NCBI GenBank assembly: GCA_965285935.1
Contig: OZ260661.1
Coordinates: 113,088,001-113,152,000, forward strand
Length of the DNA: 64,000 nt
Source: Ophelia neglecta
Lineage: Eukaryota
Direction of reading: 5' to 3'
The first letter of the stretch is position 1; every line of letters begins with the position of its first letter. The notes below the pieces were generated by a model. It was not told the DNA's origin and did not search any database. It saw only the letters and a list, made by a program, of their open reading frames with translations. The position numbers and the translations under genes were made by a program. Below are positions 1 through 52,687 of this stretch, piece after piece.

Positions 1-2808
1 AAAATTCTTGCAATAGTTACCAGCTAGGCCCCTAAACCAATAGCAAATATATACTTCCCATGATATTAAGATTTCTAGAACCTGGTATGAAATATTGTAT
101 TTAGACATTTAAAGATATCATTAAAGGTGAAGACAAGCAGATATAAGATTATAAGGCTATATACAGTACTTTTATAAAATTTAATCTTACTAAACTTAAA
201 TATCGTCTATCTTTGACTATATTAATGATGACCCCCTTTTTTCTGCCGGCCCTATTCCGTAAGTCCATCCCTGAGGCAACTATTTGAAGAACTCGCAGAT
301 TGGCAGGCCACATAATGCACTCCTTGGTCTTTGTTTTTATTCTGCCGTTTACTTTGTCACCAGCCGGTGTGTAAGTGGTGTAGGAGAAACCGCTGGTTTT
401 GTTTTTCTGTGGGTTAGGTGCGGCTGGCTGCCGTAATGGACGTATGGGTTTGTCTTGTGGATTATGCTGATCCGTTCTCCAATATTGCTACAGCTGTATG
501 CATCGCCCTATACAAAACTCCCGACCAAAATAGTCTGCCGGGATGTATACCAGCAGGCTAAGAACATTGAACGTTTGACTTTCCTTATAATGCTGAGAAA
601 GTGCACCTTCCCCATCAAATTTCTGACTTTGTGCTTGTATTGCTTTGCACCTAGCCCTATTATACCTTTTAACAACTTGTTAAAGTTGCCCCCAATAATT
701 CTGCATTTTATTAGAATTATGCTATGAATTTTCTAGCCATTTAATGCTTATCAACATCTATTTTAGGGTGAATTGGGCAACATAATTATTCCCTTAGTAT
801 TGAATTATTAGCTAAAATGATGTGTAGTGAATCAAATCATCTTATAGATGATGGCAATTACCAGTATTTTATCCTTAGCTATTGTCTTGTGCTGCCCTAT
901 TTGTCACTTCACCCTATCAAAGCTGGTAAATAATGTCCTTTTCTGGTGATGAACACATAAAGAACACTGTTATCTCAGGATGGTTCATCTTTGGGATTCC
1001 TAGGATCATTAAATTGATTGCTGCATGTTAATGAAAGCCTCCAACTAGATACAAATATTGAGTTACTGAGGGTGAGTTTTTGTTAGTTTCTACCTCATCT
1101 TGTGGTATAGTTGATTAAGAGGCTGGTATAGGGATCAATCTGAATAGAAACTAAAAAGTCGGAAAGTAAAGTGAGGAAATTGGCCTACTCGTGCATTATT
1201 GTGAAAATAAATGCTGGAGAAAAATAGGCCTTCAAAACTATGTATAATGTGAGTACTATTTACATAATTAGCTCATATTTGAAAAGGTGACTAAGAAACT
1301 TTTGAAAGCAAAGATTGATAAACAGACAAAAACTTACCGGCTTCCTTGTGTCAGAGAAACCCCTTATTTATTGTGTGGGTCTTTTACAGCTTAATTAACC
1401 CATGCATTCAGTATTAACAATTGTTACATACTCCCGGGAAGTCAATTAATTTAGCAGGAAATGAATTGAATGAGACAAATGTTTAAACAATTAAGGCAAA
1501 ATGTAATCACAAAAATGAATAGGCAAGTAAGCTGTGATTTATTAGAAGGACCAAATTTTATCAAAAGTTTACCCATAATTCATTGTACGTCTTTTCATGA
1601 GAATCATGGCTGTACATTTGGTTTGAAATGTGTTTGTTAATGTATGACCATGGTGAATCAGTCTCCTAATTGCTTCAGGTAGGCTGTCTTCATTAGGCAA
1701 GCCATACAACTATGTTGTTATTAGAGAGAGGCTTGTGGGCTGTAATCCCTGCAAATGGTGATTGGGTGCCAGTAGTCAGGGGCAATCTGGTTAATATACT
1801 CGGCGGTTCTCCTCCAGCCCCTGCAGTCAGCGAGTTTAATGTCCCCAGCCTCAATATACAGCAATGATGGTTCAGTAAGAACAGCATTTGATTATTTTTG
1901 TGATCAGCTCTGTAATAAAATGTAAAATAATTTCTTTTGTGGATTTTCCTGTACTTGGAAGTAAAGACACTTCCCCACAGTCCCAATATATGTATGAAAA
2001 ATGGTTATTTAAAAAAAATTAGATTAACCCAAACAACACATCAAATTTTCATAAAAGCACTGTAAAATTGTTTAATGAATAAACTTAAAATGTCAGCTCA
2101 AATGAATGTAATAACGTATGGTAAGAGTGCGAGTGATGATGAAACTAGAAACTTGTCTTTTGTAAATTTAATTCTAACACTTCCTACTTGTGAGCATTAA
2201 GTGGTGATCAGAACAGGACAGACTTGGTGAATGGTTTACATTGGAGCTAAAACACCCAGTTATTGGTGGTGCAAACCCTACGCTAAACCCATTACAATAA
2301 GTATCTTAGCTCAACAGACTTAGCCGGCCAACATAGGCCTGTTTAATAAAATCAGAATGAAAATAAAATTGTCAACGACTGCTCCGTGTGCTTGGAGCAC
2401 CTTAAATGTATTACACAGATTAGATTACAGCTTGCATTTGTTGGTGAATTTGATTTTGGATCGAATTATTGAATGCACAGCTATTAAATCAAAACCATCA
2501 CCTCGGTCTGTGTAGTACCAAGACTGAAACCATTACGGACGGAACACCTAACCATTTCATAGCAGATTTGATTTCAACAGAAAGTATGCTCTTCTGCAAT
2601 TTAGGCCATTTCCTCGATCACTACAAATTATTAGATTTTCAGCGAAAGTGGTCAGTTGTGATGCCATTGAGTTTTTGATGAATTGAATGAAATACTTATT
2701 TATCTTCTTGTTAGTATATACTGTCATTTTACTTATGCTTTTACTGACTATCCACTAGATAACTCTTAGTCAATAGAGAAACTGATGTCTTATTCTATTT
2801 TGTTTCAG

Positions 2809-2882
2809 GGAGAAAGAAGATGACCTTGAACGGAGATTTGACCTTTTAAATCGGGAGTTGAGACAGATGATGGCTATTGAAG
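2809..2882 (+). CDS. EHBP1: EH domain-binding protein 1 orthologue, third-to-last coding exon (bMERB/DUF3585 domain)
   Basis: tttcag| acceptor and G|gtgagt donor; 74 nt encoding EKEDDLERRFDLLNRELRQMMAIE, closely matching my recollection of the vertebrate EHBP1 C-terminus (EKEHDLERRYELLNRELRAMLAIE). Upstream exons lie outside the window. Confidence 0.95.
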
Positions 2883-5800
2883 GTGAGTGAAGGCAATGAT
2901 AGAAATGATCCCCTCAATAAATTAAAAGGGTATGAAATTCCCAACTGGTTCTGGATAATGAGACCAGAAGCTTTGGGATTAAGGCAGATTCTTTTTAGAT
3001 TAAATCAGCACTGTATTTCAACTGAAAATACCTCAGAGGAACAATATATTTTTAAACATCGCCTCAGCCCAATGGAAGAAGTGGATCATTTGTGTATTGT
3101 TAATGTTTGCGGGAGTTCCTTTCTGGCTGTGAAGCTTAGCCCACCTGTGCTAACGACGTGTAAGGGCGGAGGTGGGAACCTAACCAACAGGTGTACATGT
3201 AAACAAGCTGGTCTGATAGTGACCCAAACTCCTATTTACCTGGGTAAACTGCAAAACAAAGACAACATTCCAAGATAGAAATGTGTGAATAACTGGTGTG
3301 GTCAGTGCTGTGGACAAATGGTCCGGTGCTATTGAACGTGGCTGTCAATGCAGTCGGTGTCCTTTCCAATGTCAATACCAGCTCAATACAGCACTGGATT
3401 ACTCCATGGCTGATATCATAGCATTACGGGTTGAGGCTTTTAAGCCAAGCGCCAAAATTGGTCAAAACAAGCTGCACTATCTACATCATGAGAAAACAAC
3501 ACTAGTAATAAGTGTTAAGAAAATGCTAAAGTTTAACCAAAGTTATTATATGTTCATTGTGAACAATGAATTGAAAATATTTTAATGGCACATAACGTAC
3601 ATAATGAAGAAAACAAAAGTTTATAATTTATTTACATTCTTTAAATTAAAACCATAAATAAATGATGTAATGCAATTTCTACACTGTTTTTTGATTGGAT
3701 ATTAATGCTTCTGAGAACCTTTCCCCAGCTTCCCAGGCCTTCTCTATTACCTGGGAAAATATTTATTTAAAACACCTCTGTATAAAAGGGATCTTACCAA
3801 ACTCTTTGTTTCAACTTATGGCACTCCCTTGTTGTTTGTTTATTTTTCTTTATTTACCAATTAGATGATAGTGGATGTGTAAACAAGACTAACTGCTAAA
3901 TACTCTTTTAGGGTTAGTTTGGGACATCAAAGTTTGTTCTGCCTTTAACAGAGAGGACTTTGCGAAATATTTCCCATCAGTATGTAAATACATGGCCAAC
4001 TTCCATCTTGTTGTTTAATGACAATAAAATTAGAGACAGTGATATTTCAACTGGAAATATTTTTTTGAATGTACCAAAGCTAATCCCTTTCCGTTTTACT
4101 GGTTTATCAAATGTTATTAGTTTGATATTTAAGGATTTTGAATGAAGATATTACCAGACAGGTGTTCTAATAGAGGGAATAAAGATTAGGATGCTCCTGA
4201 AATGCTTCTCCCCATGAAATTTCAATATTTATTGCTCAGTAATCCCACACATCAAAGATCCTCCATTAAGTAATGGTTCAGAAAAGTGTGAATATCAGAT
4301 GTGAACTTGAATTCAGAATATTAGCAGTTGGTCATTTTTCTGCCGGCAGCCCCAGGATTCTAGGACAGGTGTCCTTGAGGCCTGCCAAGAATCACAATGA
4401 AATTCACCAAATATCTCCTGCCAGATTTCAAATGATAGGCCTCCGTAGGTTTCTATTATGAAAATATTGAAATTCCACAGTCTGTCGCTCTACACCGTAG
4501 CTTGCAATGTCCTACCGCGGGTCATACATGTACAGGTACTACTTCAGTATTGTACATATTGTCCGTGGTGGGTTTGTAAAATCCACTTCCATACCCTCTC
4601 GCCTGACTTGAGTTGTTTAATAAAGATCTGTTTTATTATCATAAAAGTTTGAGTATGGCCTGAGGGAGGCCCTGTCATGTCACTGGCAACAGATAGCATA
4701 GCAAGGAAAATGCTAACACCTAGCTGAAATAAAATACCATTATGCATCTGGTAATTCCCAGACATTTCTGGCTGGTCTGGGGACCGCAGCCTTAAGGTGA
4801 TGTGTATAGTTCTTCTCGGGTACAAATCATAACAAGTGGCCGTTATTATATCAACTACTCAGCCAGGTTTAACACCTTATATGTTGACTTTTCCAGAATT
4901 TATAGGATTATAATTTCAAGGCAGTGTGTAGTCATTATTAAAGGGGGGGGGGACACTGCTCTCTAGTACATATTCCTGTGGTACATAGTGATTTCATAAT
5001 AAACTGGAAAAATCATTAAAGTTTTATTCTTCCCTGTGATTGACTTTTTTAATCATGGTAGTTTCTGTCCCTCAATGTCTGGACTACTGTTTTGTCTTTT
5101 TTTCTATAATACTTTTGGTTTTATTGGCATAGGCATAGGTAAGAAACCCAAATACTATATAATTTATTCATGGACCCTTCAAATGTTGTCTCTAGGTATG
5201 TTGAAACACATCCTTCACCCATTATTATGTACTCTACTAGATTTAATGTTCCTCTACTGGTTTAGGGGGTAAAAGTGACTTGGGAATCATCTGTTAGTAT
5301 GTGTATAAGGGATACTTCTTACTAGCCATGTTGCCACAAAGGAGATGATCCAACTATTTGTATGAAAATGGGATGCAGCTAGGTGTTTTTAGACCCTCCT
5401 CTCTCTTCCAGCGTATGAACATAACCCTGCCATCAATCTTCTAAACTGCGATGGTGGTTTTTCCAATTTCAGAAGCCACCAGACTGCCATAATTTGTCTT
5501 TCCCGTTATGAATAATAGCAGATTAGGTGTCTGTGGGAGATTTTCCACATGAACAAGTTCATTTCTGTCAAAATCAATGTGGCGTGCAGCTACACATGTT
5601 GGAGTATTGCTTAGTTTCGGGCCCCAGTAATTCATCAGGCTAGGAGCTATGATCGAGCTGACAGCTCTTCGTAATGTGAACACTGAGAAAATGTCCTAAT
5701 GGCCTGGTTATGCAATGGGTTTTGTGAAATATGCCATGTTGATACAGCATCTTAGAAAATGTGAATTTTACCCAAGACCACATTGGCACCAAGTGGTATG

Positions 5801-8800
5801 AATATTTCAATAGGTGAACATTTTGTCGAGACACCTGTGCCTGGGGGTTTCTTATTTACCAAGGAACACTGCCACATCCTGTTGCCTTGTGGTGGGCGAA
5901 AACAGGCAAAAGTGAAAAGTAAAACTCTGGCTGAACTAATCTCCACATTACAGAGATGGCCAAAGTGTCAAGCTTTCACACAACAAAACTTGTGATCAAG
6001 TTGCAGGAGAAAATGGTAGGGAAAAATTGCTGTCAGCTTGGGATTAGAGATGCGACAATATTGATTTTGGGTAGCTTCCTCAAGCATCATAAGCAGCTGT
6101 CCAATTGTCTGCGGGTAGCATATTTTTCTTCCAGATTATTTTCTGAAAAAAACATGAATGCTAGCTTTATGTTTACCTGTAGAATCTATATACATGTATA
6201 CTTCCTGGATGCCACTAGTTAGGGTGCTGGAAGATCAATTGATATCCTAACAAATTGGAACTTAGAAATAGAAGAAATGTTTCCCCAAAGGAAAATTCCC
6301 TCATTTCCTCATGCTGAAATTATGGCTGCTGTATTGACAGGAAAATAAAACAAGATTTTTTATAAAACATTTAGGTTTGGTTTTTCTGCAATGGTGATCT
6401 GGCTATTCCACTTCAGAATGTCTCTTTTGATAATTACTTTCCACTCAAAGTAAGTGGAACTTCACATAATTTGGAAGGTACCCGAGCCAAGACTTGCCTT
6501 AATTAATTACTTTTTTTCTGCAACTTTTCCCAATTTGTTTATGTATTGGCAATGTCATATCATGTTTCTTGCCCTACCCTCTATAAATGTCTGTTGAATC
6601 AACATCCAGTAATAGCAACGCCTACTATCTAAATAATATGATAAATGAATTATTGATTAACATTCAAGTTTGAGAGGTGTCATTTAAGGATCCTGACAAG
6701 AGAGGATCCACAAATGTGTGACCACCACCCATGGAGATGGCAAGGAATTCATGCAGTCAGTTCTATTCTCCTTTTCCACTGATTGAATCTGTGTGTGTTA
6801 TGGCCCTTTAGATGAGTATATTGTGATTTATTTCAGTTGAAAATGGGCTGAAGCAGTGATGAAGTCTTCATTGCTGATAATATAACATATATTCCATCAA
6901 ATATACTTTTTATAGACAAATATGTGTGTACATGTACATATATATGCAGAAGTCATAAAAAAGCAATGTACAAACAATGTAAGGGAGAAACCATGTGAAG
7001 GAGGGTGTTCGGGAAGGCAAAAAATTGAACCGCAGACAAGTTATTAGCTGTCTGACTGACTGGCAACCAGTGCTTCCTGTAATTTAGGCCCTCCCCACCC
7101 CCGGGGCTCTGTGACATATAGAACCACACAAACTCAGGAGGTGAGCAGTAGCCAGAGGACTTAATGATGATATACTTTCTTATTGGAAAAAAGCGTACAT
7201 TATGGAATGTTACTTGATATGAGATTGAAAATATGTAAAGACTAGCTCAGTTGTATATGTAAACACATTTGGTAATGGTGAGAGATAATTTTAGAAGAAG
7301 GGAAGCCATGAGATAATAATTTGTTACCTGTAGGCTTGCTTGAGTGTTTTCTTTATTAATGTTGTTCATTTGTAGGCTGGGGCTGGAGACCAGAGCCCCC
7401 CATCTCAGGGGATACAATTAGAGGGATTAGGTTGATGTTCGACATGATCCCCTCCTTAAAACCTCTGCCTCTCTGACCCACAAATTAATTACTACACAGT
7501 AATGTACTCCGGTCAGAATGTGTTGCGGCAAAATTGGCCTCTCTGTTCGTGTCGTCCAGTAAAGGCCAAAGACGCAGCAAGCTTGTAATGGGCTTATGTC
7601 TGTAATATAGCACACTCGTGGTTCACAGTGCTCGGGTCTGCTAAACCCAGTTAGGGCTTTATTTTTAAATGTGAATTGTGTGCATTGTTTGATAAAAAGT
7701 ATTGTAGGATATAATATGTAGTTTTAATGGTTATGTCACCATCAACAGGAAATATACTAATCTTTGAAGAAAAGTTTTTTTTTTTTTGTGATAATCTTTA
7801 TTTAATCCTTTCAATTTGAACAGTAATGGTAATACTGAATTATTTGGGCAGTTCACTGACATTGCTTTGACTGAAGATAGTTCAGAATTGTCTATGTATT
7901 ATTAATGGTGAACAAGCTTTATTCTATCTTAAATTTCAGCTGGTTAAAATAAATATTTGATCATCTAATGGTGTGATCTGTTCTGAAGTTAATTGCTGAT
8001 CAGTTGTGTGAAGCTGAATAGGCAGGATTAGCAAGGATATGCCATGGCTGAGGGGCTGTCCTGGCCTGCATTTGATACATATAAGTATCCTGAGATGGGC
8101 TTTTGCCGGATATCAAGTCTGATTTGCTTGGTGCCTATAGACTAAAGCCAGATTCTAATCCTTGTTGAGTGCCTGCATTCAGCGCATGGCCTCAAATAGA
8201 CGTTTGACTGATATAGCCTTACATATTATGGACAATCCCGACCCTTTCACTTTATTAAAACACATTTAGCACAGGATGCTTCAATATAAAATTTGCTAAT
8301 TTTGATTCCTTGTTTGCTTCAAGAGTTTAACATTTGCACTGTAATTGGTCAAGGTAATATGGACAGGAGTACAAGAAACCCTATAGCTGTGGTCAAACGC
8401 TGTGAATGGCTAGGTATTGCTGTGAAATGGCTTGGCTGCAGTAGAACAAATTTGTGTTGTAGTCTTGCACAAAAGTGTCACTCATGGAGTGGTTGGTTTA
8501 TTTACTGACAGGGCAAGTGGACAGACAAAGCATGGCAAATAAATCAAGAAAAGAATATGGTGCTCTGATGACGCAAGGGGCTGATTTTCCTACTGTAGAA
8601 TCAACAGAGTTAATGGTGTAGAGAGCTTTCAGCTCATGGTGAAAACCACCACCAACACTTGAGGGAAATCCTCTGGCTGCACCTGAGATCTTACCAGGGA
8701 AAGTCTGGCTCAAGAGTCAGCCTCAAATGTGTTCAGCAAACCTAGGCAGACCACTTGATTCCTGTACAAACTGCTATTCACAATGTTCGCGGGATCCAAT

Positions 8801-11764
8801 TGCTGGCAGCCGGACCGATTTTTCATGTCCAACCCTCAACCATTTGGTCATGACTTTGAAATTGTGTGAACAATTTTTCTGCAATTTGTCGCTCCAAGAT
8901 GACATCAAGAGATTTCTAGGCCTTTTGTTATGACAGGCTGAGTGGCAATCGCTTCAATTTTTTCCACTTTTTGGCAGTTACAGGGGATCACATTTTACTA
9001 TTTCCACTCCTAAAAGTCATTCAGCAGGCAGCAATTACCTGAAGCATCCTTAAACTTGTAGAATGTGAAATTGTATCCTATAAAAGAAATGTCGGGACTG
9101 GAACAAAAAAATTGTCTTTGTTAGACTGAATATTTTGCAGATCATTCAGTGCTGAATATTCCAGATTTGTTTTTCCTGGTAATTTTTGTTTTCCAAAAAT
9201 GATATATCATTTATATATATAAAATGTACTTGAAATATAGAAACATATTTTCATTATCTTTATTATACCTAAAGTACTTCTGACTCATTAAATTGATTAA
9301 TAGAAGTAAGTTTTGGAAAAAAATTATTGAAGGGAATAGGCAGTAACATCCTTTTCTTTGATTGTGAAGATTAAACAAAAGAAAAAATCCAATTACTAAT
9401 GTGAAATTTCAAAGTCTGCCTAGTTCTTGAGATGGATTTTTTTACATAAGATAAATGTTAGAGACTTGATTTTCTGTGTCTGATGGTTTCATAACTTCCT
9501 TTTTAAACCTTATCACTGATTTCCATGCCGCTCTGAGCGCTGACAAATTCATTTTGCCTGGTTAATGTTGACTTTAATTATCACAACTGGCTAAGTAGAC
9601 ACATTACTCTATCTCTAGGCTGTGACGAGTTCATTGTCTCAGCCCCGGAAACCAAATTATCCTGATTTATGTTCATGGAACAGCCACAATCAGATTGGAG
9701 ATTAGGGGTTTTCTCCACATTGCAATGGCCAATGTTCCCATAAAGCATTTCAGCCACTGACAACGTGATTAACATAAGAGATATTGGAGGAGGGAGGGGC
9801 AGCTCTGTACATGTATAAATGAAGTGGCAGTTTGTCCCCTAATCTTAGGATGGCTCAGGAACAAGTGGTGGTGCTGTGCCTCAACATTTACTGGTGGAGT
9901 TTTTCTATGTCTTGTATATAAACTTTGCTGTAATCATGTTTGTTTTATTTTGTAGCTTGCACAAGCAGTGTAGTCCATTTATATGGCCAAAACTATTATT
10001 AACACAATTAAGTCACATGTATTAATTATCAATTATAAGTATAAATTTATAGTCACAATAAATGCTTCTACATAGAAACTAATTAATACTTGCATGTCAT
10101 GGTGGAGGCACTCGCATTCCTTCTTCTTTGCATTTATTTTTCTTTAAATTCTGAATAATAGGAATATGTTATTTATATGCAGACTTTTTTTCTTATATGT
10201 ACTCAAGAAAAATAAATATAGAAAACTTTCAGAAGTTTAAGTATGGCAGACACAATGGATTAAATATATACCGGTTGACACAATATACTGAAAATTGTCA
10301 TTGTTATATCTTAATACGCCCTGACAATGAATATATTAAATGATTGCTCAGACTATAAACAGCTCCTGGGACTAATCACATTAGCTGGAGTAATGTTATG
10401 GCTCCTTTCAGTTCTCCCGCCTGCCGGAGGTCTTGTACTGCTATCAGTGTTATTTTGGACCATGATACATAGGCTTGGGACAATGATGATCTCTTGTCCT
10501 TCTATATATTATTAAAAACCATGACAATATGAACAATTTTTCCTTTCAGTGACAATGTACATATACTTAGAATCATCTTTCTGCTCTCCGGCAATAGACG
10601 TTCAGTCTAGTATTTTTATGGGTTTTTATAATTGCAAATGTTTTATGTTTGTCAAAGATTTTCCTTAAATACTTTTGTAGCCTTTGGAATGATTTAGTAT
10701 ATAAAATGGTTGTTTACATCATTTGGACTTGCTATTTTCTTCATGTTCCTGTTTATCAATGGAGAGCAGTCTTTACCCCCTGGCTTGTTTGGTTAAATGA
10801 TATTGAATATAATGATTAGATTTGATCAGATTGAAAAAGTCAAAACTAATTCACATCTAATATATAATTAGACTTATTTTTCAAAATGAATTTTGAATAA
10901 TTTATTGAATTCATTTTACTTTTCTCTACTCTCCCTTCTTTTATTTATGGAAGTAATTAGAAGAAGAAAAGAGGAGTTCATTTCTCATAATTAATTAATC
11001 AGTATATGTACCTATCAATGTGAAGACCTACTAACTTGCCAAAACATATCATTGGCTCTCTCTTACAAGAAGTTAGGAGATATGGATTGGGATATCTTCT
11101 GCTGACACTATCATTTGATTTGGCTGTACATGTAACGGGAAAACAGTTTTGTTGGAAATCAGAGCATATCTTGTTGCCATAACAACCTCAGACAAAGAAC
11201 TGGAGTATTTCAGGCATAATGGTACTTTTTTACCTGAGGAATAAAGCTTTTGAAATGGTTAGTTTAAAATGGTTAGAGATCGTTTAAGGAGTGATTTATT
11301 GTGATTCTGATGGCTTTTTCCAGATTTGACCTTGACCTATTTTTTCTAGGTTTTCCTTACCACTGTGTTAAATAATCTGGTTTTGATTATTATTCAGTTG
11401 GTCTTCATTTCTTTACAGACATAATTGCCTTACATATAAAACACTCGATACTAGGCAATGTTTCACCATTGTTTTAACAAACACTGGCAGGTGGGGTAGG
11501 TTTGAATTATGGGAAGGGGGGGGGGGGAAGTGGAGGTACAGGGCAAGCTTTTTCCTGGACCAAATGTAACGTATGTTTAAGATGTTACAATTTAAAATGT
11601 ATTAAGGGGGTATAGGAAATATTACAATTCAAGTCTGATGATATCAGATTTGACCTTGAGCCATAGCCATCTCTTAGGCAGTGGCATTTCTTAATGCACT
11701 GTTCAAATCTCTTTAATAGTAACACAGTGCCATGGCTGATTATGTCCTGTTTCTTTCTCCTCAG

Positions 11765-38300: not shown

Positions 38301-40767
38301 TAAAGCCGCAAAGTAAATTTTGTTTAGATATGCCTGTCTCTTGCATTATAAGATAAGATAAGATAATGTTTATTTTAAAATAGAAGCTTTCAGCAGAAAA
38401 GCTACTATTGATTATCGTTTTAACCATAACTATGCCTATTTATGCCTATTATAAGCGACCTATAATTCTGTCAGTACAAAAAAAGGTGAAAAATCATGTT
38501 TTATATACGCTTAGGCGACCCTCTATAGGCCTACCTGTACAACCAGACACGCTTTCAAAAACCTCTCTTTTCCAAAGCAAATCCTTCCCAACCCGCGGTT
38601 AATAATTCCTTCATTGTTGGAACGAGGAGAGTCAACCTAAATAGATAGTCTAAACACAAAACCGAACTTAACACAAATCTTCGAACAGTGGTCTTTATCA
38701 ATAGATTTTATGACTTGATCCGATTTTGGCTTTTGCTATTTTACCCTATTGAGTAGAGTCGCTCGGAAGGCTTGTAAACTGTTGGACAAAGCCCCATGAA
38801 TCTCATCTCACCAACGCACGTGTCCCTTTTGTTATGCGCCTTGCCCCGCTCGGTCTTTTTCTTCTTCGCATGGCAATAGCAAGTTTTTAAAATGTGACCT
38901 GTACACCTTCTATGGTTTTCAAATACTTGATTTTATTTGCTTCGGTTGTAAATGACTGCTACTGAATGTAAGATGGGTAAAGACATGATTTTGGTGGTAT
39001 TGCATTGCAACATAAATTGAGTCGCAACTGCAAGGAAAACCTCGACAAGGAACGTCCAAGGGGTGCTAACATCCAATTGTAGAACAAGATGCCGTGATTA
39101 ATTGCAATTTTCCTTCTCCAAGGGTGGTTTTGTTGAAAAAGGTTGATATTGATTGAGAATCAGTATTGCTATTATCGCCCATTTATATGCAAATCGCTGT
39201 TGCTCCAATCCCACTGTGCAGCCGATTGTTCTGTGTCTTTCAATAAAATCCTCGCCTTGTTTTGCTATTGCCTTCTATTTTCCGCTTACATTTCCCAGGA
39301 CGAAATGAAAAGATTGCCGAATAATGGCGACAGCTTCAGCATGGGCCCGACCATCTGTCCGGGGACAGATAGCTCTGTTTTTCTCGTTAGGGCAGGATTG
39401 CTGCAATCGTTCAGCCCATTTAAAAATAAATTATCCGTCTATTTGTGCAACAGTTCAATTGAAATTGAATTTCATGGGATAATTTGGAGCTGATTGATTA
39501 CGATGGCAGTAGCTATGATAATCGATCTGTGTTTTAACAGGAAACACAATTCGGAATCGAGTACGTACATACCTTTAATACTAAATCCGACGGGCTCGGA
39601 AAAGAAGCACAACATCATGGGGTTAGGGTATAAAATAATGTTCTAGGCCTATTGTTCAGACTTTATCTTCCTAAATGCTAGATAAATTCACGTATTTAGA
39701 CTATTCTGTGCGTTAGAAATTGAGGAAAATAGAAACTTGGAGGGTTTACGCAAGAATTTGCATGCAGATAAGACACAGCATTCCAGGTCAGTATATAGGT
39801 ATTTCAATGGAGGTAATCCTTGAGGGGTTAGTTGGCGCGAAAGGACTTTTTTCAATCTTTAATCTGGATATTGAGTACACTTAAGAAAACCAAGAGCTGC
39901 AGGCTTGAGATATTATAGTTTAGAATTTTTATTTAAAATAGAATTAGTTAGTCAGTTCTTTTCACTTTTATCGCGCGTTGCCATTCGTTTGCTTGTGGGT
40001 GACATACAATCATTTACAAAGAAGAAAATCCCGATTTCCTTTGCTGTCATTTTCTCATTGAGGTACTTTGGCAGATGAAGTGGGGAGTGTAAGCGATGGA
40101 GAGCCCTGGCAGGGCAATTCATCTTCATTAATGAGACACCAATCGGCGGAAAATGACGGTTACAATGCCCCTGTCGTGCTCTTGACTGGCACAAGACGGG
40201 TGATGAGCGATATTGGGGTTGCTGACGGAGGTCGTCTGTTGGTCCGATCTTCCAGCCGCCCGGGCACGTCTTATCGGCGTCGCCCCCTCCAGTGCCAAGC
40301 GTGCCCGAGGGAGATAAGCCCGAATCAAGAGCCCGACTAATCAAAACAATATTTCTAGCAGAAATTCGCACTCCAGTGACACATGCTGTGAATAATGTGT
40401 CGCGCTATCTCGGTCCAACAGAGGTTCTTCTATTAGCAATATCGCACCCCAAATGGGCTTTCAGCCACACAATTCACATTGCCCGAAACGGGACATAGCC
40501 TTTGTGGAATTGGAAAATTCGCTAGATACGTGCTGCTTGGGAAATAATGCAAAAATTCCTTCTATTGCTTGCTGAAACTAGGACTCACTCGGAATATTCA
40601 GCGTCAAAAAGCACTTGAATGATCAGCGACCGAAAGTGACACCAGCATGGTTGTCAAGTACCGCCGATCTGTCCGCCATGTTGGTGCAGATCAGAAGAAA
40701 CGAGAGGTAGGCATCGGCACGACTCCTAAATATATGCGGCCTCACACGGTCCGCCCAATGTCTATAT

Positions 40768-41340
40768 CACAGTAGGCAACGTGATATACTCACCGACGAC
40801 TTCCGGTCATGTTTGCGGGATCACAACAAGCACATGTTCGTGTTTTGATGGAACGGCAGGTAAGTAAATTATAATTTTCACAAACAAAGAAGCTTCTGAT
40901 TGATAAGATAATTGACCCCTGGAAAAAACATACGTTTAGTTTCCTTGTAATGAAATCTCAGTCCATGCCATCATTAAATGTATCGGTGAGAGACAATTTT
41001 CTGACCTCCCCTGACGCGGCTAATTGACAAGTAGTTGTTTCCCTCGATAAGGAGCTAATTACCTAAATCCCATACTTTTGGTCGACATATTCATGTAAAG
41101 TAGGTCCTATTTGTTAGTCCCATATATATTTGCCCGGTAAGAAAAATCTGAATTAGCCAGAAACAGGCTATTTATTGTTTTACTTGTTGTCGCTACTGAC
41201 GGAGTTGGGCAGCCACAACAAACGGCGCGACAGGAAAAGTGATGTGCACATCGGACGGAGGCTTAAATGTACAAAACATGGCAATTTATTGTTTTGAAGC
41301 CTTCTGCAGATTCTAGCTCTTCGAAATTTATCACGAACTG
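40768..41340 (+). repeat. Left terminal inverted repeat (573 bp)
   Basis: Reverse complement of 43712-44284; contains ETS-type ACTTCCGG (40799-40806), ATG GAA CGG CAG and a CAG|GTAAGT donor (GT at 40860). Confidence 0.95.
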
Positions 41341-41433
41341 TAACCATTTGCTCCGCGAGTAGTCGTTCCCACTATCCCGTGCGTTTATATTACTGGTATA
41401 TGATTGAATTAGACAATTCTAGCACATTTACAG

Positions 41434-42150
41434 ATAAGAGTCGACATCCATCATGGAATCAATGGTGTTATGTGGTTATTGCCCCTATTCTGGATATTTA
41501 CCGGATGTGATAGTACATTTAATTACTGGACACGCAGAGAAGAAGGTTAAGGTTAGGGAGAAGCTGTTGTGTGATTTTGTTCGGGCGGCCAGATACTAAT
41601 TTGTTTATCTTTACAAAGTCTCCACATTTTCAAGCAGTTAATCTGAAATGTTTTAAAAAACGATATCATGCCAAATTTTTCATAATTTCAAACTTAATTA
41701 TTAAGAAGCCAATATTAAAGGGAACATGTAATTGCAGACATATCCTGTATCAATGTATTTTTGTATGTGAACATGCTTTTGAGAGAGAAAATCCAGCCAC
41801 GAGAAGAAGCATCATAACTGAATCTCCAGAAACTCTTCCTTATATTGATATCGAGTACGCGTTTCTCCTAAAGTAATCTACCCGCATGCCTACCAGAAGT
41901 TAACATATGGTCATAATTTACCTCCCTGTAGCTCATGTATTGTTTGAAATATTGCAATAATTGCAAGTGCACTTGACATACACTATACACTAATTGGGGA
42001 TAATATGATATTTTAATTTTTGAAATTAATGAAATCATTTTTATGTCATAGGCCTATTTAAATAAATATGTACTATTTCCTTGCAGGGATCATTTCTTTG
42101 ACTCAAGTCATAGGAGACGCGGAAAACAGAAACGTCGCCGAGGGGAATAA
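41434..42150 (+). pseudogene. Internally deleted spliced gene of the transposon (probable transposase remnant): N-terminal zinc-finger-like exon plus two C-terminal exons
   Basis: Acceptor tttacag|41434 and ATG at 41453 in Kozak context give MESMVLCGYCPYSGYLPDVIVHLITGH... (Cx2Cx11Hx4H; stop at 41599). Exon 41738-41872 (135 nt, phase 2/2) joins in frame to exon 42087-42150, giving ...YAFLLK|DHFFDSSHRRRGKQKRRRGE*. AATAAA at 42217-42222. No catalytic core is present. Confidence 0.55.
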
Positions 42151-42770
42151 GTGGGCCAGACGAGCCCTCTCGACATATAATTCAACATAAACAGTTAATT
42201 GTAATCTTACCGGGCGAATAAAATTCCATGTAAACAACGTAAACTCAGTCCTAAGTTTATTGAAATAAGAATGCACAAAACATTCTACAAGATCAAGAAA
42301 ACGAAGGAAATAGTTTTCATATCTTTACAACAAATAATTTAATGTAAATCACAGTTAGTGCATTTGGCAAACAACTTGGTACTATATTTGTAAATGTTTA
42401 AAAAATAAACCATAAAAATACCTGAGTAAATACAAATACTTTGGTTACATATTCAGAAATAAAGAACAGTACACATACTTGGGTCCATAGATTTTCATCA
42501 TTTGACATACTGGTATATGTTTGATTCAACTATATCCTATTAACTGTTATCAAAAATAAAGTTATAAAGTAAAAGAAAATTGAACAGACACTTAAGGTTT
42601 GGAAAAAAAATAAAAAACTTGTTTCACTTAATATAATGTGTATGGTAACTTCCCTTCACGTGAACAATAAAATGGGACAAGCCAGGACGAAAAATAAACA
42701 AATACCTTGTTGACTAATACAATAAAAGAATAGCACACAAGTTAATACCAAAAAGTTCAACATTTAACAA

Positions 42771-43525
42771 TCACACATTTATTTGGCATTTTTGAAAGTG
42801 ACGTTTAAAGCTGGTCCTCCACCTGAAACGTTTTCCGCAGTTACTGCAACGGTGTTTTGGTTCTTGGTGTGGTGTCATATGTCGGGATAGTTTTTTCTTA
42901 GTGCCACTTCCAGTCAGCAAATGTCACATGCATATTTATTTGGTCTGTGGCAGTTCGTGTGTTCCTTCAAGCTTCTCTCATACATTTTTCTACAGCCTAG
43001 TTCTTTGCACTTAAATGGTTTCATCCCTGCATGTTTATTCACATGTCCTTGATATAAACTCTTTCGTCAGTAAAAGATTTATTACAAATGGCGCAGTGAC
43101 GTTGATTCCTTTGGTATTCACTCTGCTCACTGTGAGCATGTTGTGTATGCCATTGAAACTTATTCTGACTCGCAAATAAAAGGCCGCAAACTGGACAAAT
43201 CACAGGCTCATTTTCCCCGTGCACGCCTGTAACATGCTGCTTCAGGTCCGAAGGTAGAGCAAACTTTGACGGACAAAGACTGCAGACATTTTCCCTTGAG
43301 CCGTGCATCCTTTGCAGGTGTTTTCTGAAAGGGTCTCTGTGCCTTATTTGGAAGTGACATTCAAGGCACTGGTAACCCTTCAATGTCGGGGTAGCCTTTG
43401 CGGTCATTTTTTCCTTCACTATTTTTCCCATGCTCAGCGGTGGAGTCGCCTGTCCCTTGGTCAACCTCCTCCTCATAAACATTGAGGCTGGAGTCAAGGG
43501 GAGATATTGTGACTGCCATTAGACT
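42771..43525 (-). pseudogene. Tandem C2H2 zinc-finger gene (7 fingers), disrupted, inside the transposon
   Basis: Acceptor ctttctttttttacag|43525, ATG at 43519. Fingers CLEC..H..H, CSLC..H..H, CPVC..H..H, CAIC../QGHVNKH, linker AGMKPF, CKELGC..H..H, CDIC*../LSRHMTPH, CSNC..H...C, then TGA (42773-42771). Frameshifts at ~43050 and ~42893 (probably also ~43380), in-frame TGA at 42916-42914; AATAAA on the minus strand at 42261-42256. Confidence 0.9.
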
Positions 43526-43711
43526 CTGTAAAAAAGAAAGATGAGAAGTGCCTTAGATTAGTTATACCTTCATAGGCCTACATTATAGTATGTATGACAA
43601 GTGGAAGTAAAAATGTGACGCATATATTTTATGTTTGGCAGCCTTCCAAATAGAATTTTTTTCATCTTTTAATTTCAAAGGTGTTTATTGCAATACAATG
43701 CTACCAGAATG

Positions 43712-44284
43712 CAGTTTGTGATAACTTTCGAAGAGCCAGAATCTGCAGAGGGCTTCAAAACAATAAATTGCCATGTTTTGTACATTTAAGCCTCCGTCCG
43801 GTGTGCACATCACTTTTCCTGTCGCGCCGTTTGTTGTGGCTGCCCAACTCCGTCAGTAGCGACAACAAGTAAAACAATAAATAGCCTGTTTCTGGCTTAT
43901 TCAGATTTTTCTTACAGGTCATATGTATATGGGAATAACAAATAGGACCTACTTTACATAAATATGTCGACTAAAAGTATGGGATTTAGGTAATTAGCTC
44001 CTTATCGAGGGAAACAACTACTTGTCAATTAGCCGCGTCAGGGGAGGTCAGTAAATTGTCTCTCACCGATACATTTGACGATGGCATGGACTGAGATTTT
44101 ATTACAAGGAAACTAAACATATGTTTTTTCCAGGGGTCAATTATCTTATCAATCAGAAGCTTCTTTGTTTGTGAAAATTAAAATTTACTTACCTGCCGTT
44201 CCATCAAAACACGAACATGTGCTTGTTGTGATCCCACAAACATGACCGGAAGTCGTCGGTGAGTATATCACGTTGCCTACTGTG
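43712..44284 (-). repeat. Right terminal inverted repeat (573 bp)
   Basis: Reverse complement of 40768-41340; CCGGAAGT at 44246-44253; donor GT at 44192-44191 on the minus strand. Confidence 0.95.
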
Positions 44285-47200
44285 TATATGGATTTGTTCT
44301 GGAAGGGCAAGCAAAAAATGAACAACTGCTTAAACAGCAAGAATTGGTCCACGTCCCTATATTTACCGTGATACATCGGTAAATAAGCGGGTAAACTTTG
44401 ACCCCCGTCTATTGTAACCCTATCTATCTTTGGTCTCAACGACAGTGACTTAGCCCGAGTCTGATCAGTTTAACCACGCCTTTTCTCTCTTGTGAGAAAC
44501 AAATTAATTAAACCGTCAACGTTACAGATCTAGGCCTATACCTACAATGGGACTAATGGTGAAGTGCTGAGTTGTTGTTTTAATTATGTATACATAAGCT
44601 TACATATTAATTATTGTGACCAACCTGAGAGTTTGAAGTAATGTATCAAAATGTAACTATGTCATTATTTCATTGTTCTCTTTCATTGATGATGCCGACC
44701 ATGCTAATTATTATGTTATTTTGTGATACATTCAGACAAATGATGACATTAGTATTCTGAATCTTTGAAACAAAGGGCCTTTTGTTAGTAGGCCTATATC
44801 AAAGGGGATTACAGTAAAGAGAGAAACTTATTCTGACAATTTTCCAAACTTTCAGGTATCTCCCAAATTGGCAATATCTGTACACTATGTATGTTAAATC
44901 AATAGTTGCCTAGTACTAACTCGCCCCCGGACAAATTCGTGCTGGACCCGTACGTGTATACAAGAGCATTCACCACGTCGTATATAGACTGAGACAAATA
45001 TTTTGGCTGGACACACAGCCCCTCGGCACCTTCTGACCGTTCTATTTTTGCCCAACTACAAATCTCAAATGACTAAACAAGCACTTGGGTTTTGCACCCA
45101 TATAAACTTAACAAAAAAATCTCCTACAAAGTTAGGTAACTATATTTCAGGCACACCGGTGGCCATATGATTTAGGCCCATCGTCCTGTACTCTTCAGAT
45201 TCGAGAAATATTTAAGGAAAAATCAGCTGGCCAATAAATAATAATATACTTTTATGGGAACTCAATTATTATATTAACCCGTGATCGAGTTCAGTGACTT
45301 TTCAGTCAGAGCTCGCAATGTTAAATGCTTGTCTATATAGTCATCACAAATTCCAACAAGCTTGTATTGAAAATGTTTTGATCAAAACGGTTTTAGGAGG
45401 AGCCTATTGCCGATAAGCTCTTAAACGTACATAGCCACGCGCGCTGTTGGTAAACTTATTGCAAAGCTCCAAAATTGCTGTCCTTTCGCCTGTGTTTGTT
45501 CTTTACCAGGTAAGTTTGCACGAAGCTTTATCACAACTCGAGGGGAGGATAAACCAGCTTTGCCATTATTCAATTTGATATGATGAGTAAACGCGATTAT
45601 TGTTTGAAAATATCAAAATTGTATATTTAGACTTGTGTGTTCAAAGTATCTGCGACGCGTGCGCGGACAATGCCGGTAGCTTCTTAGGGTCGGAATAAAC
45701 ATAGATTAGACACTTATACTCAAATTAAGCCTATTAGCGTCGTTCTAATTCCGGATGAATTTGTATCCTTACTAACAGCGTTAAGCGGAGCGGGGTGAAC
45801 TTTATAAACTGTCAACAGACTTTAACTAACTGTTCAAGTGCAAAGCTCAGACTCGATCAAGTAAATATCTCTTATTCCGTGTAAACAAGTTACGAGTGGC
45901 CGGGCATATTCATACGCCATGGTAATATAGGTGTAAAGTGCTTACACTGTTCTCTGCTTTCTATAGGGCTACCTTAACAGCAATAGAACAGTCACCACCA
46001 GATATATATATTTTAAAAAAGACCATGACACAGCACCAGGCACAATGGACCATTTTCTCATCTAACAAGATTGCAAAACCAATGACATTGGAGACTTTTT
46101 CATTTGCTCTAATGTGTTCCCTTGATATCATTCGGTGAATGAAAATCATCGCGGAGATCTGAAAGCGGCCGAAATGAGAGTTTTCTAAGGAAGCTATGCC
46201 ATGTCGTGACATTCAATGCCCCTCGCATCAATTTTTTCCTCAAATTATCATCTCTTTTCGCATTCCCGTCCTCCACAACATAGAATCTTTCATGAACGTA
46301 ACAAAGCAACTTTTGTGTGGTTTCCTGAAAGAATATAATGTATGCCGCTCCGAATGTTCTTTGGTATATACTGGGTCGGCTGGGACCAGAAGACCAATGT
46401 TTCCATCAAAGAATACAGGCGCACTGGGTGTAAATTTCTAGCTGGAGGGATTCAATTCAGCTGAAAACGTCCAAACTTGCTAAGTGGTCCTCCAGAAAGG
46501 CTACCCGGAGGAAAACTTATGTTCCGGTTTTCTAAAGGACCCCTTAATGCTTTCCACTATGCATTCAAACAGGGCTGCGCCTATCTGCCAAACTTGACGA
46601 GTCGAACACACACAAAAGCACAATAGGCAATGTTTGCAAATAGTAGAATTCTTCGTAAGACATGAAACAGCCCGCCAAATGTGTAGAAGAGAAAGAGGAC
46701 CGCTGTGAAATAAAGAAAGGGGATATCTATATGAGTATCTTGTTAGCCATTTGTCGAGCACGCCCGATTAGTTCCGGAGAATATCGAGCGGGTGCATGCC
46801 ACTTTAGCCTACGGAGCACCACTTTAGTCTGGACCTGGACACAATGTACCCCAAGCTGCCCCCTACTCAATGCCATTGTTGGGGATATGATAAAACGGAC
46901 ACATTCTGGATGTGCATTTTTCAACCTGTCCATTGATAGGGCAGAGGATGCCCTAAGGCGGGCAGCCCACAAGAACAAGTGCCTCGATCACTCCTAAAAC
47001 CCGTCGCGCCGTGGACAACATTTTCGTAACAGTTTTAGCTGTTATCTGGCTCTAAAAAAAAATCAATTATAACCGAGAAACATCGGACAGTAAATAGGCC
47101 TAGCGAGCGACAAGCGGGCAGTCGAATATAACAGCGGAGCGAGCTTATTAGATGTCACGGCTAGGCCTCTAGATGGAAACAAAATGCATGGAAATGGTAC

Positions 47201-50700: not shown

Positions 50701-51151
50701 AATCTTAGCTTCGTTGAGGCTAGTCCCTTCTGATAATATTTACATCGGCAACTTTTTGCGACAGCCGAAAGAAAGTTCTATTTATTTGCAAAAGCAGCAC
50801 AGGAGAAGTCGCCAAGCTTGAATGGTAGTGAACAAACTGGAAAGGTGAAAGATCATTATGTACAGTTATTGAAGCGATCAAACAAACCCGCTTGTAAATA
50901 CTAATGATATTAAAGACAGGTTGATCCTTATTTGACACACTAGGGCTACTCTACTATTTACCCGAGGGATGAGCCAACCAACGTGTGCCAATACACCTTA
51001 TAATTCTTAACATCACCACACGCTGATACTCGGAGCACTGTGTTATCATTTATAAAACTCCGATTAAGTTTGATTCCGATTTAACTCTGAAGTGGTTGGG
51101 TACTTACAAATTGATCTAGATATTTGTTAAGAATGATTAAAGCTAATACTC

Positions 51152-52687
51152 GTGACTATTGCAAAGTTTGGGTTCATTCCAGGAGACTCAACTGTAAACA
51201 AGATACTTCATATTTGTCAAAACATTTACCGAGCTCTGGACGCCGGGGACGAAATGCTGGCGATCTTTCTTGATTTTTCTAAGGCATTTGACAGAGTTTG
51301 GCATGCTGGTCTTTTATATAAACTTAGGATGCTTGGCATTCGTGGTAAAACACACAAGTGGCTGGCAAGCTATTTGCATTGTCGTCGACAGCGGGTAGTA
51401 CTTCCCGGGGGAATGTCGTCGTGGGGAGAGGTGCCTGCCGGTGTGCCACAAGGGTCGGTTCTCGGACCGCTCTTGTTTCTGATATATATAAACGACATTG
51501 TTGATGATATTCAGTCCGATGTCAATCTTTTTGCAGACGACACTTCCCTTTTCTCCAGGATAGAGCAGGGCAAAACAGCGGACGCCTGTCTCACTCTCAA
51601 TCGAGACCTCGAACATGTTTCTCAGTGGTGCAAATCGTGGCATGTGGGCATTAATGCTAACAAAACTAAATGTTTGCTCATCAGCAAAAAAACGGTCCCT
51701 TCGCCTGCTTTTCCCTTGATTTTAAACAGTTCTGTACTCGAGCTTTCTGAAACAGCTACCTTTCTTGGCGTTATCTTAAATAACAGAGCTACATGGGACT
51801 CTCATATCAATGATTGTATTAAAAAGGCAGCCCTCCGTCTTAACCTTCTAAGACCACTAAAATATAAGTGCTCTAGGAAAGGTCTGGACATGGCTTATAA
51901 ATCCTTTGTGAGACCAGTCTTGGAATATGGCAATATTGTCTTTGACAACTGCGACAACTATTTAGCTCGTAGTCTTGAAGGTCTAAACTTGTCTGCTGCA
52001 AGGCTAGTCTGTGGTGCTCGACGTGGCACGTCTCACCAAGCTCTTCTCTCTGAAGTCGGTTGGGCCTCTCTCTCAGACCGACGTACCTATTGCAGACTCA
52101 TGAAACTGCGCAATATAGTCTTTCAGCAGGCACCTCAGTATTTACTTTCCCATTTACCGGCGAAGGTAAATCATCGCCATAACACACGCTCATCTCTCAC
52201 GTTGAAAATTCCTTTAATGAAGTGTCGAACTGAGTATTTTAAATCATCTTTTTTCCCCAAAACAATATCTGAATGGAACTCCCTGCCTGTTGAAACACAA
52301 TTATTACCAACTTCCCTTGCTTTCAAACGTAAAATAAACCCTACACCTGGTCCACCTCCCGTGTTTTACCATCTGGGTTCACGCCCAATCAATGTTTGCG
52401 TGGCACAAATGCGACTCAATTGCAGTGAGTTACGCTACCATTTGTACTGTAATCACTGTGTTGAAAGCCCACTGTGCGAGTGTGGTGAGGAAAGCGAGAC
52501 ACCCTTTCATTATTTCTTTTGTTGCTTGCGTTTTGCGGCTCCCAGGGGCGCCCTGCTGGACTTTCTGCACTCAAATGGTATACCAGTGTCTGTTGCATCA
52601 ATTCTCTATGGTACAAAAAATTCAACTATTAATATTAGATTAATGTCTACCCTTGAAACATTTATACAATCCACTAGACGGTTTTAA
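51152..52687 (+). CDS. LINE ORF2 C-terminal part: reverse transcriptase plus C-terminal Cys/His motif (lacks endonuclease and a true start codon)
   Basis: Motifs GF.PGDST, FLDFSKAFDRVWH, GVPQGSVLGPLLFLIYIND, LFADDT, FLGV, YKSFVRPVLEY, SFFPKTISEWNSLP and CECG..ET..HYFFCC; uninterrupted for ~505 codons. The first few codons are flanking DNA. Confidence 0.93.
   Translation: MTIAKFGFIPGDSTVNKILHICQNIYRALDAGDEMLAIFLDFSKAFDRVWHAGLLYKLRMLGIRGKTHKWLASYLHCRRQRVVLPGGMSSWGEVPAGVPQGSVLGPLLFLIYINDIVDDIQSDVNLFADDTSLFSRIEQGKTADACLTLNRDLEHVSQWCKSWHVGINANKTKCLLISKKTVPSPAFPLILNSSVLELSETATFLGVILNNRATWDSHINDCIKKAALRLNLLRPLKYKCSRKGLDMAYKSFVRPVLEYGNIVFDNCDNYLARSLEGLNLSAARLVCGARRGTSHQALLSEVGWASLSDRRTYCRLMKLRNIVFQQAPQYLLSHLPAKVNHRHNTRSSLTLKIPLMKCRTEYFKSSFFPKTISEWNSLPVETQLLPTSLAFKRKINPTPGPPPVFYHLGSRPINVCVAQMRLNCSELRYHLYCNHCVESPLCECGEESETPFHYFFCCLRFAAPRGALLDFLHSNGIPVSVASILYGTKNSTINIRLMSTLETFIQSTRRF

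Follow-up and report, generated by a model that had tools for sequence, protein, structure and literature searches.

The window analysed here, a stretch of 64,000 nucleotides from Ophelia neglecta (contig OZ260661.1), contains at positions 40768-44284 a DNA element bounded by two 573-nt terminal inverted repeats (TIRs), one at 40768-41340 on the plus strand with the terminus CACAGTAGG, the other at 43712-44284 on the minus strand, which are 97% identical to each other. Between the TIRs lie a C2H2 zinc-finger gene on the minus strand (42771-43525; PF00096) and, facing it on the plus strand, a 48-codon open reading frame (41453-41599) followed by a separate exon at 42087-42221. The element is flanked by a 5-bp target site duplication (TSD), read from the sequence as TATAT at 40763-40767 and again at 44285-44289, and a 5-bp TSD, with a different sequence each time, was found in 10/10 other copies for which both ends were located; three further family copies matched at one end only and fall outside this count. 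An empty allele was also recovered, on the basis of a single contig of the X3 run that, followed from the left flank, passes into right-flank sequence. The window has no long host ORF close to the element; a 516-codon ORF at 51137-52687 resembles, by eye, the reverse-transcriptase part of a LINE.

A genome search with the TIR returned at least 41 matches, about 12 of them near-full elements and the rest small deletion forms or older relatives, the last at 66-73% identity; the young copies are 95-99% identical to one another. Among the small derivatives are one of 101 bp with a 5-bp TSD (L043:501-601) and one of 694 bp (L042:501-1194). The left and right TIRs differ at position 50 (40817 vs 44235 in the window), and left-right differences recur at shared positions in most copies, which means that no copy-by-copy homogenisation of the two TIRs is taking place. 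Copy L041 holds two foreign insertions (2070-3880 and 4597-6357), the first with CAC..GTG inverted ends, and comparison with the transposase found no similarity in either. Decayed older relatives that share a flank form a tandem cluster at G000 C2:12.34-12.83 Mb (L044-L047, L083-L086), and the long ORF adjoining it is, by its look, what we take to be the XPG-type nuclease of another transposon. A decayed relative in L049 has histone H3 and H4 genes (7944-9947) about 6 kb away. A pair of 13-mer matches 29 kb apart on C2 was considered as a further element and ruled out, there being no common TIR or TSD.

Both TIRs carry ACTTCCGG, the reverse of CCGGAAGT, at positions 32-39. We take CCGGAAGT (40799-40806 on the minus strand, mirrored at 44246-44253) to be an ETS-type word and thus a putative binding site, and it is intact in 23/25 TIR ends of the family. 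A consensus splice donor, CAG/GTAAGT, follows TIR position 92 on both sides, giving candidate exon ends at 40859 and 44193; this 9/9 match was equalled in 0/300 dinucleotide shuffles of the left TIR and about 4/300 of the right. The word and the donor had both been named in the original prediction and stand as described. The predicted exon 1 on the plus strand (40809-40859, no start site being placed) holds ATGs at 40809, 40834 and 40848, and the right TIR mirrors the leader ATGs together with the ETS-type word and the donor. Predicted intron 1 would span 40860-41433 for the plus gene (574 nt, mainly TIR) and 43526-44192 on the minus strand for the zinc-finger gene (667 nt), and splicing would take out 481 of the 573 nt of the first TIR. 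The corresponding acceptors are at 41434, with the ATG at 41453, and at 43525, with the ATG at 43519. These are the sites originally proposed, but they had been put just inside the inner edge of each TIR with each acceptor immediately before its ATG, whereas the acceptors fall in unique sequence, past the inner TIR edges by 93 and about 187 bp, and 19 nt separate the plus acceptor from its ATG. Three sequencing runs of unrecorded kind contained no joints at the predicted introns, a result with no bearing on expression. A dsRNA of about 570 bp, also envisaged earlier, would require unspliced read-through beyond the AATAAA words present on both strands between the genes, words that are common in AT-rich DNA.

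The leader ATG at 40848, which is TIR position 81 (ATG81), reads in frame into the zinc-finger gene (MERQ/SLMAVT). Through acceptor 41434 it is out of frame with the ATG of the plus gene, where it opens a 42-codon overlapping uORF, and a TAA at 41435-41437 is in frame with that plus ATG. The frames are thus as first reported; the description of a single leader ATG, in contrast, had overlooked the ATGs at TIR positions 42 and 67, the former sharing the frame of ATG81, and an alternative acceptor at 41441, a weak GAG site that brings the leader into frame with the plus ATG.

The zinc-finger gene is decayed in most copies. A frameshift near 43407 shortens the window ORF to 58 aa, and, counted from the leader ATG, the ORF is intact in one of the 12 copies (L035, 253 aa) and truncated in nine including that of the window, two copies having no gene model. 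Against two older relatives dN/dS is 0.33 (89 codons) and 0.47 (41 codons), values confined to aligned blocks, of which a third relative yielded none; they replace a whole-gene estimate in which unaligned sequence had been included, and they point to past purifying selection on this gene. A protein atlas returned generic C2H2 clusters only.

The plus-strand ORF had been regarded as a putative transposase gene, a reading that has to be given up. It carries a CxxC..H..H finger and ends in TAA after 48 codons in 9/9 copies read of the 12 examined; two protein searches found no homologue of this ORF (47 aa), and in the genome it matched family copies only. What matched relatives was the last exon rather than the 5' ORF, and it is on this ground that the gene could be identified: the exon at 42087-42221 (RDHFFD..HKRL), deletion-damaged in the window copy, has 55 genomic matches and corresponds to the C-termini in 10/12 sibling loci and of proteins labelled Mytilus. 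The 5' piece in turn aligns with the N-terminal finger of the sibling family L095 (E 0.004). Between finger and last exon there are 633 nt in the window element but about 5 kb in L095, which means that the larger part of the transposase gene has been deleted; the comparison identifies the plus 'gene' as a deletion remnant, a transposase gene of roughly 5 kb reduced to its first finger and final exon. Genome searches found no autonomous parent with CACAGTAGG ends. The genome also contains RAG1-like genes (13 PF12940 matches) with a convergent RAG2-like ORF of kelch/PHD appearance, in at least three sequence types (L051-L062; G000 C8:1.03 Mb and 1.11 Mb, C12:73.6 Mb, C1:15.62 Mb and C2:83.63 Mb). 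These loci were ruled out as the parent, having no DNA similarity to the element, and in the portion of results examined they showed no CAC ends with a TSD.

From the 55 last-exon matches, 20 loci and further flanks were examined, and at least eight other families were recovered. These have TIRs that range from about 60 to 620 bp, and they combine a long ORF with a convergent C2H2 gene. Their termini are mostly CAC, also TAC and CAG, and an exact 5-bp TSD is present at 11/15 boundaries (of the four misses, three resemble off-by-one boundaries and one has a mismatch). Several members of about 8 kb are apparently intact and near-identical, namely L095:293-8666 with L096 and L110, L105:1490-9689 with L106, and L108:603-8751. 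A convergent C2H2 gene is likewise present in 3/7 contigs from outside this genome, the three being those that extend furthest downstream. Many single TIR ends of a decayed family, L098, are clustered on G000 C1:4-14 Mb, and its TIR contains an inner ACAGTAGGC word that resembles the terminus of the window family.

The proposal that each TIR serves as promoter and first exon could be considered across nine unrelated families; in all of them a donor points inward close to either end and, on both sides, an acceptor lies near an ATG. The donor is 66-190 bp from the end and is followed by an intron and by an acceptor that at most ends lies 0-19 nt before the ATG, the leader ATG elsewhere joining the next exon in frame. 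In the short-TIR families L105 and C1c the donor, 103-155 bp from each end, falls outside the repeat, and in L156, a contig that does not come from this genome, the likely right end has a leader ATG and a donor 126 bp in, followed by an in-frame acceptor 460 nt on. On the zinc-finger side of L108 the exon reached from the leader gave no in-frame join to the fingers. Family ends also contain CCAAT, AAGATGGCG and TGACGTCA, presumably promoter-type words. Donors matching at least 8/9 positions within the first 200 nt point inward at 10/18 ends and outward at 1/18, a count in which the two ends of one long TIR are not independent; in four of the nine families, including L108, C1c (right) and C7b, the donors are weaker or hand-chosen. 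This shared layout, read from sequence, makes it likely that each TIR is an inward promoter plus a short first exon for two facing genes.

The same features could instead be due to chance or be leftovers; on that view the long TIRs would, as in Galileo, do no more than bind the transposase, and each gene would have, or have had, an internal promoter of its own. Conservation within the family agrees with such an account: the donor 9-mer is identical in 25/25 TIR ends and ATG81 is kept in 24/25, as the original prediction would have it, but the same invariance is seen in 17% of all TIR 9-mers, and since the young copies are 95-99% identical we set aside the persistence of donor, ETS-type word and ATG among them as evidence. 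Beyond the young copies conservation does not hold. Of eight older-relative ends spanning the donor site, two keep GT, three have GC and three have lost it, the ETS-type word is kept in two older-relative ends, and ATG81 is absent from 7/7 aligned older relatives, five of which come from one tandem cluster, so that the seven amount to about three independent insertions. These decayed donors, and splice models drawn from nucleotide sequence, also speak for chance. Neither the inward bias of strong donors nor the placing of acceptors beside ATGs, or of in-frame leader joins, at nearly all ends is expected under it, since an acceptor beside an ATG needs a donor upstream; in three families, moreover, joining leader to exon yields open frames. 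We therefore regard a chance origin as very unlikely, and retain as likely the interpretation of each end as promoter plus first exon.

A different matter is what the leader ATG does. It had been suggested that ATG81 opens a selected overlapping uORF that lowers the transposase relative to the zinc-finger protein, a dosage control; in a variant of this idea it would now block translation of a harmful truncated transposase. The reading frames are compatible with this, ATG81 is intact in nearly all young ends, and in the L098 family the leader frame likewise stops on the transposase ATG. That family is nevertheless the sole one to repeat the out-of-frame pattern, and both its leader ATG and its leader length differ between copies. 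The long-ORF families L108, L105 and C1c have a leader ATG whose frame continues into the following exon on both the transposase and the zinc-finger side; L095 lacks one, that of C7b is short and ends inside the leader, and in C3a an out-of-frame leader ATG overlaps the zinc-finger gene instead. One side in frame and the other out is moreover expected by chance in about 2 of 9 cases, the acceptor only 7 nt downstream (41441) restores the frame, and the older relatives lack ATG81. Since the window family has no transposase to control, none being left in any copy, uORF dosage control is not supported, and we hold a selected brake of either form to be unlikely. The leader ATG might alternatively be a start codon common to both genes, the plus gene being spliced at the GAG at 41441 to give MERQ/STSIMESM... 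An in-frame product does exist at that site, and parallels occur elsewhere: in L108 and C1c an ATG carried by the TIR reads in frame into the next exon of either gene, and in L156 it does so towards the zinc-finger gene. GAG is, however, a weak splice acceptor, and here it sits behind a better one, TTTACAG; both genes keep their own ATG near the acceptor, as in families with non-coding leaders, and ATG81 is missing from the older relatives. A common start codon in this family is accordingly quite improbable. We favour instead the view that the MERQ ATG most likely arose in the family by a recent mutation, and that it would add a few residues to the zinc-finger protein and have no working transposase to repress.

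As the window copy has lost its catalytic core, the enzyme was examined in the sibling L108. Of 7981 candidates scored, 27 proved to be relatives of its ORF, four of them labelled Mytilus, and Pfam assigned YqaJ to 10/26 and a TNP-like RNase H domain to 6/26 of the aligned members. No Pfam match to THAP, MULE or RAG1 was obtained in the 26 aligned proteins or in eight ORFs, N-terminal ones among them, the genome's 13 RAG1 matches belonging to other loci; at the N-terminus, where THAP would be, the proteins have a CxxC..H..H finger or a basic stretch. Comparison of the core profile with the sequences of solved structures gave nothing relevant. A structure model of the last 646 residues of the L108 ORF (mean pLDDT 79) aligned with the Drosophila P transposase (6p5a) over 266 residues with Z 20.2 and rmsd 3.4 (Foldseek E 2.7e-4), compared with Z 6.9 for RAG1, 6.2 for Transib and 5.5 for Hermes. 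The motifs occur in the order DGKK, YqaJ ExK, DGQF, DPHH and LDSE. DGKK precedes the YqaJ ExK in 14/27 relatives and 4/4 genomic ORFs, several of the relatives without it starting downstream of that motif, while DGQF follows YqaJ in 27/27 and DPHH and LDSExF come next in most. We infer from these motifs that the YqaJ nuclease is nested between the first and second candidate catalytic aspartates, which is consistent with the alignment of the P chain beginning only at residue 250, as fits a first strand upstream of the modelled part; a YqaJ domain in front of the whole DDE core is at odds with the candidate first aspartate upstream of it. On the model, the longer members of the group encode a P-element-fold DDE transposase with a nested YqaJ and no THAP domain.

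Putting these observations together, we consider it probable that the window element is a DNA transposon no longer autonomous, with most of its transposase gene gone and the facing zinc-finger gene kept, each of its ends likely being an inward promoter with a short exon 1. Polymerase II would start within the first roughly 40-80 bp of each end, and splicing from the TIR donor to the acceptor just before each gene's own ATG would remove most of the TIR, so that transposase and zinc-finger protein would be expressed together. The zinc-finger protein is probably a regulator or helper that acts by binding DNA of the element itself, and present copies may be zinc-finger carriers moved in trans by transposase from another element. 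The promoter, splicing and zinc-finger predictions are directly testable, since several apparently intact, near-identical copies exist (L095/L096/L110, L105/L106).

In its catalytic part the group resembles the P element, with which it shares the fold [Z 20.2 in the model] and a DDE triad with DxxH (DPHH and LDSExF motifs), and its long TIRs recall Galileo (PMC4168063). For both P and Galileo a THAP domain at the N-terminus and TSDs of 7-8 bp are described (PMC4168063), whereas our group has no THAP match, a 5-bp TSD, YqaJ inside the enzyme and a second gene. The DDE core with DxxH is that of the P superfamily, but with neither THAP nor a 7-8-bp TSD the group fails as a member of it. Transib and RAG-like elements have CAC termini and a 5-bp TSD, and their RAG1L-RAG2L gene pairs are convergent; such convergent pairs are present in this genome. 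The window element is like them in its CAC terminus (CACAGT) and 5-bp TSD, some sibling families starting with TAC or CAG, and unlike them in a fold far nearer to P (20.2) than to RAG1 (6.9) or Transib (6.2) and in a partner gene that is C2H2 rather than RAG2-like. The ends and TSD length thus agree with this class and the transposase, not of RAG1/Transib type, does not, so that assignment fails as well. A P-type core combined with Transib/RAG-like ends and TSD length bears on the relations between the superfamilies.

A YqaJ or lambda-exonuclease-like nuclease is also described in the DNA transposons ISL2EU (PMC4482050) and KolobokE (PMC9587614). There, ISL2EU is given an AT TSD and YqaJ in a separate ORF (PMC4482050), unlike our group, whose TSDs are variable and 5-bp and whose YqaJ and DDE motifs share one ORF; KolobokE as presented there (PMC9587614) differs in TSD and in the position of the nuclease, which in our group lies between the first and second candidate aspartates. 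The literature searched, as listings and the openings of abstracts apart from the papers cited here, gave no description of the group, Repbase, Dfam and the supplements of PMC9587614 and PMC4482050 being outside the search; it is apparently an undescribed group of animal transposons, a novelty that is provisional as it may already be catalogued. Tentatively, and as a possibility that we rate at somewhat under even, we hypothesise an unnamed animal cut-and-paste lineage that combines a P-fold enzyme with nested nuclease, RAG/Transib-like CAC ends, 5-bp TSDs and its own multi-finger C2H2 gene, in which mirror-image promoter-plus-exon-1 modules would drive both genes, one TIR-borne start codon would in some families serve both, and each zinc-finger protein would read the TIR of its own family, forming a self-contained feedback circuit. 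The group also hints that multi-finger C2H2 genes may come from transposons, as may portable promoter-plus-donor modules that could rewire host genes.

In layout the closest likeness is to maize MuDR, whose TIRs contain the promoters of mudrA and mudrB (PMC10401008) and permit convergent transcription with possible antisense RNA (PMC3276141). The group shares with MuDR long promoter-containing TIRs (predicted here) and a transposase gene convergent with an accessory gene. It differs in that MuDR pairs a MULE transposase with the unrelated mudrB, whereas in our group the enzyme is P-fold with YqaJ nested in it, the accessory gene is of C2H2 type and the TSD is 5 bp long; the exon 1 and donor within the TIR are a prediction for this group and are not put forward as a contrast to MuDR. 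The group would in this respect be an animal counterpart to the MuDR design, with a TIR predicted to double as promoter, and by analogy its layout would likely operate as in MuDR and its catalysis as in P.
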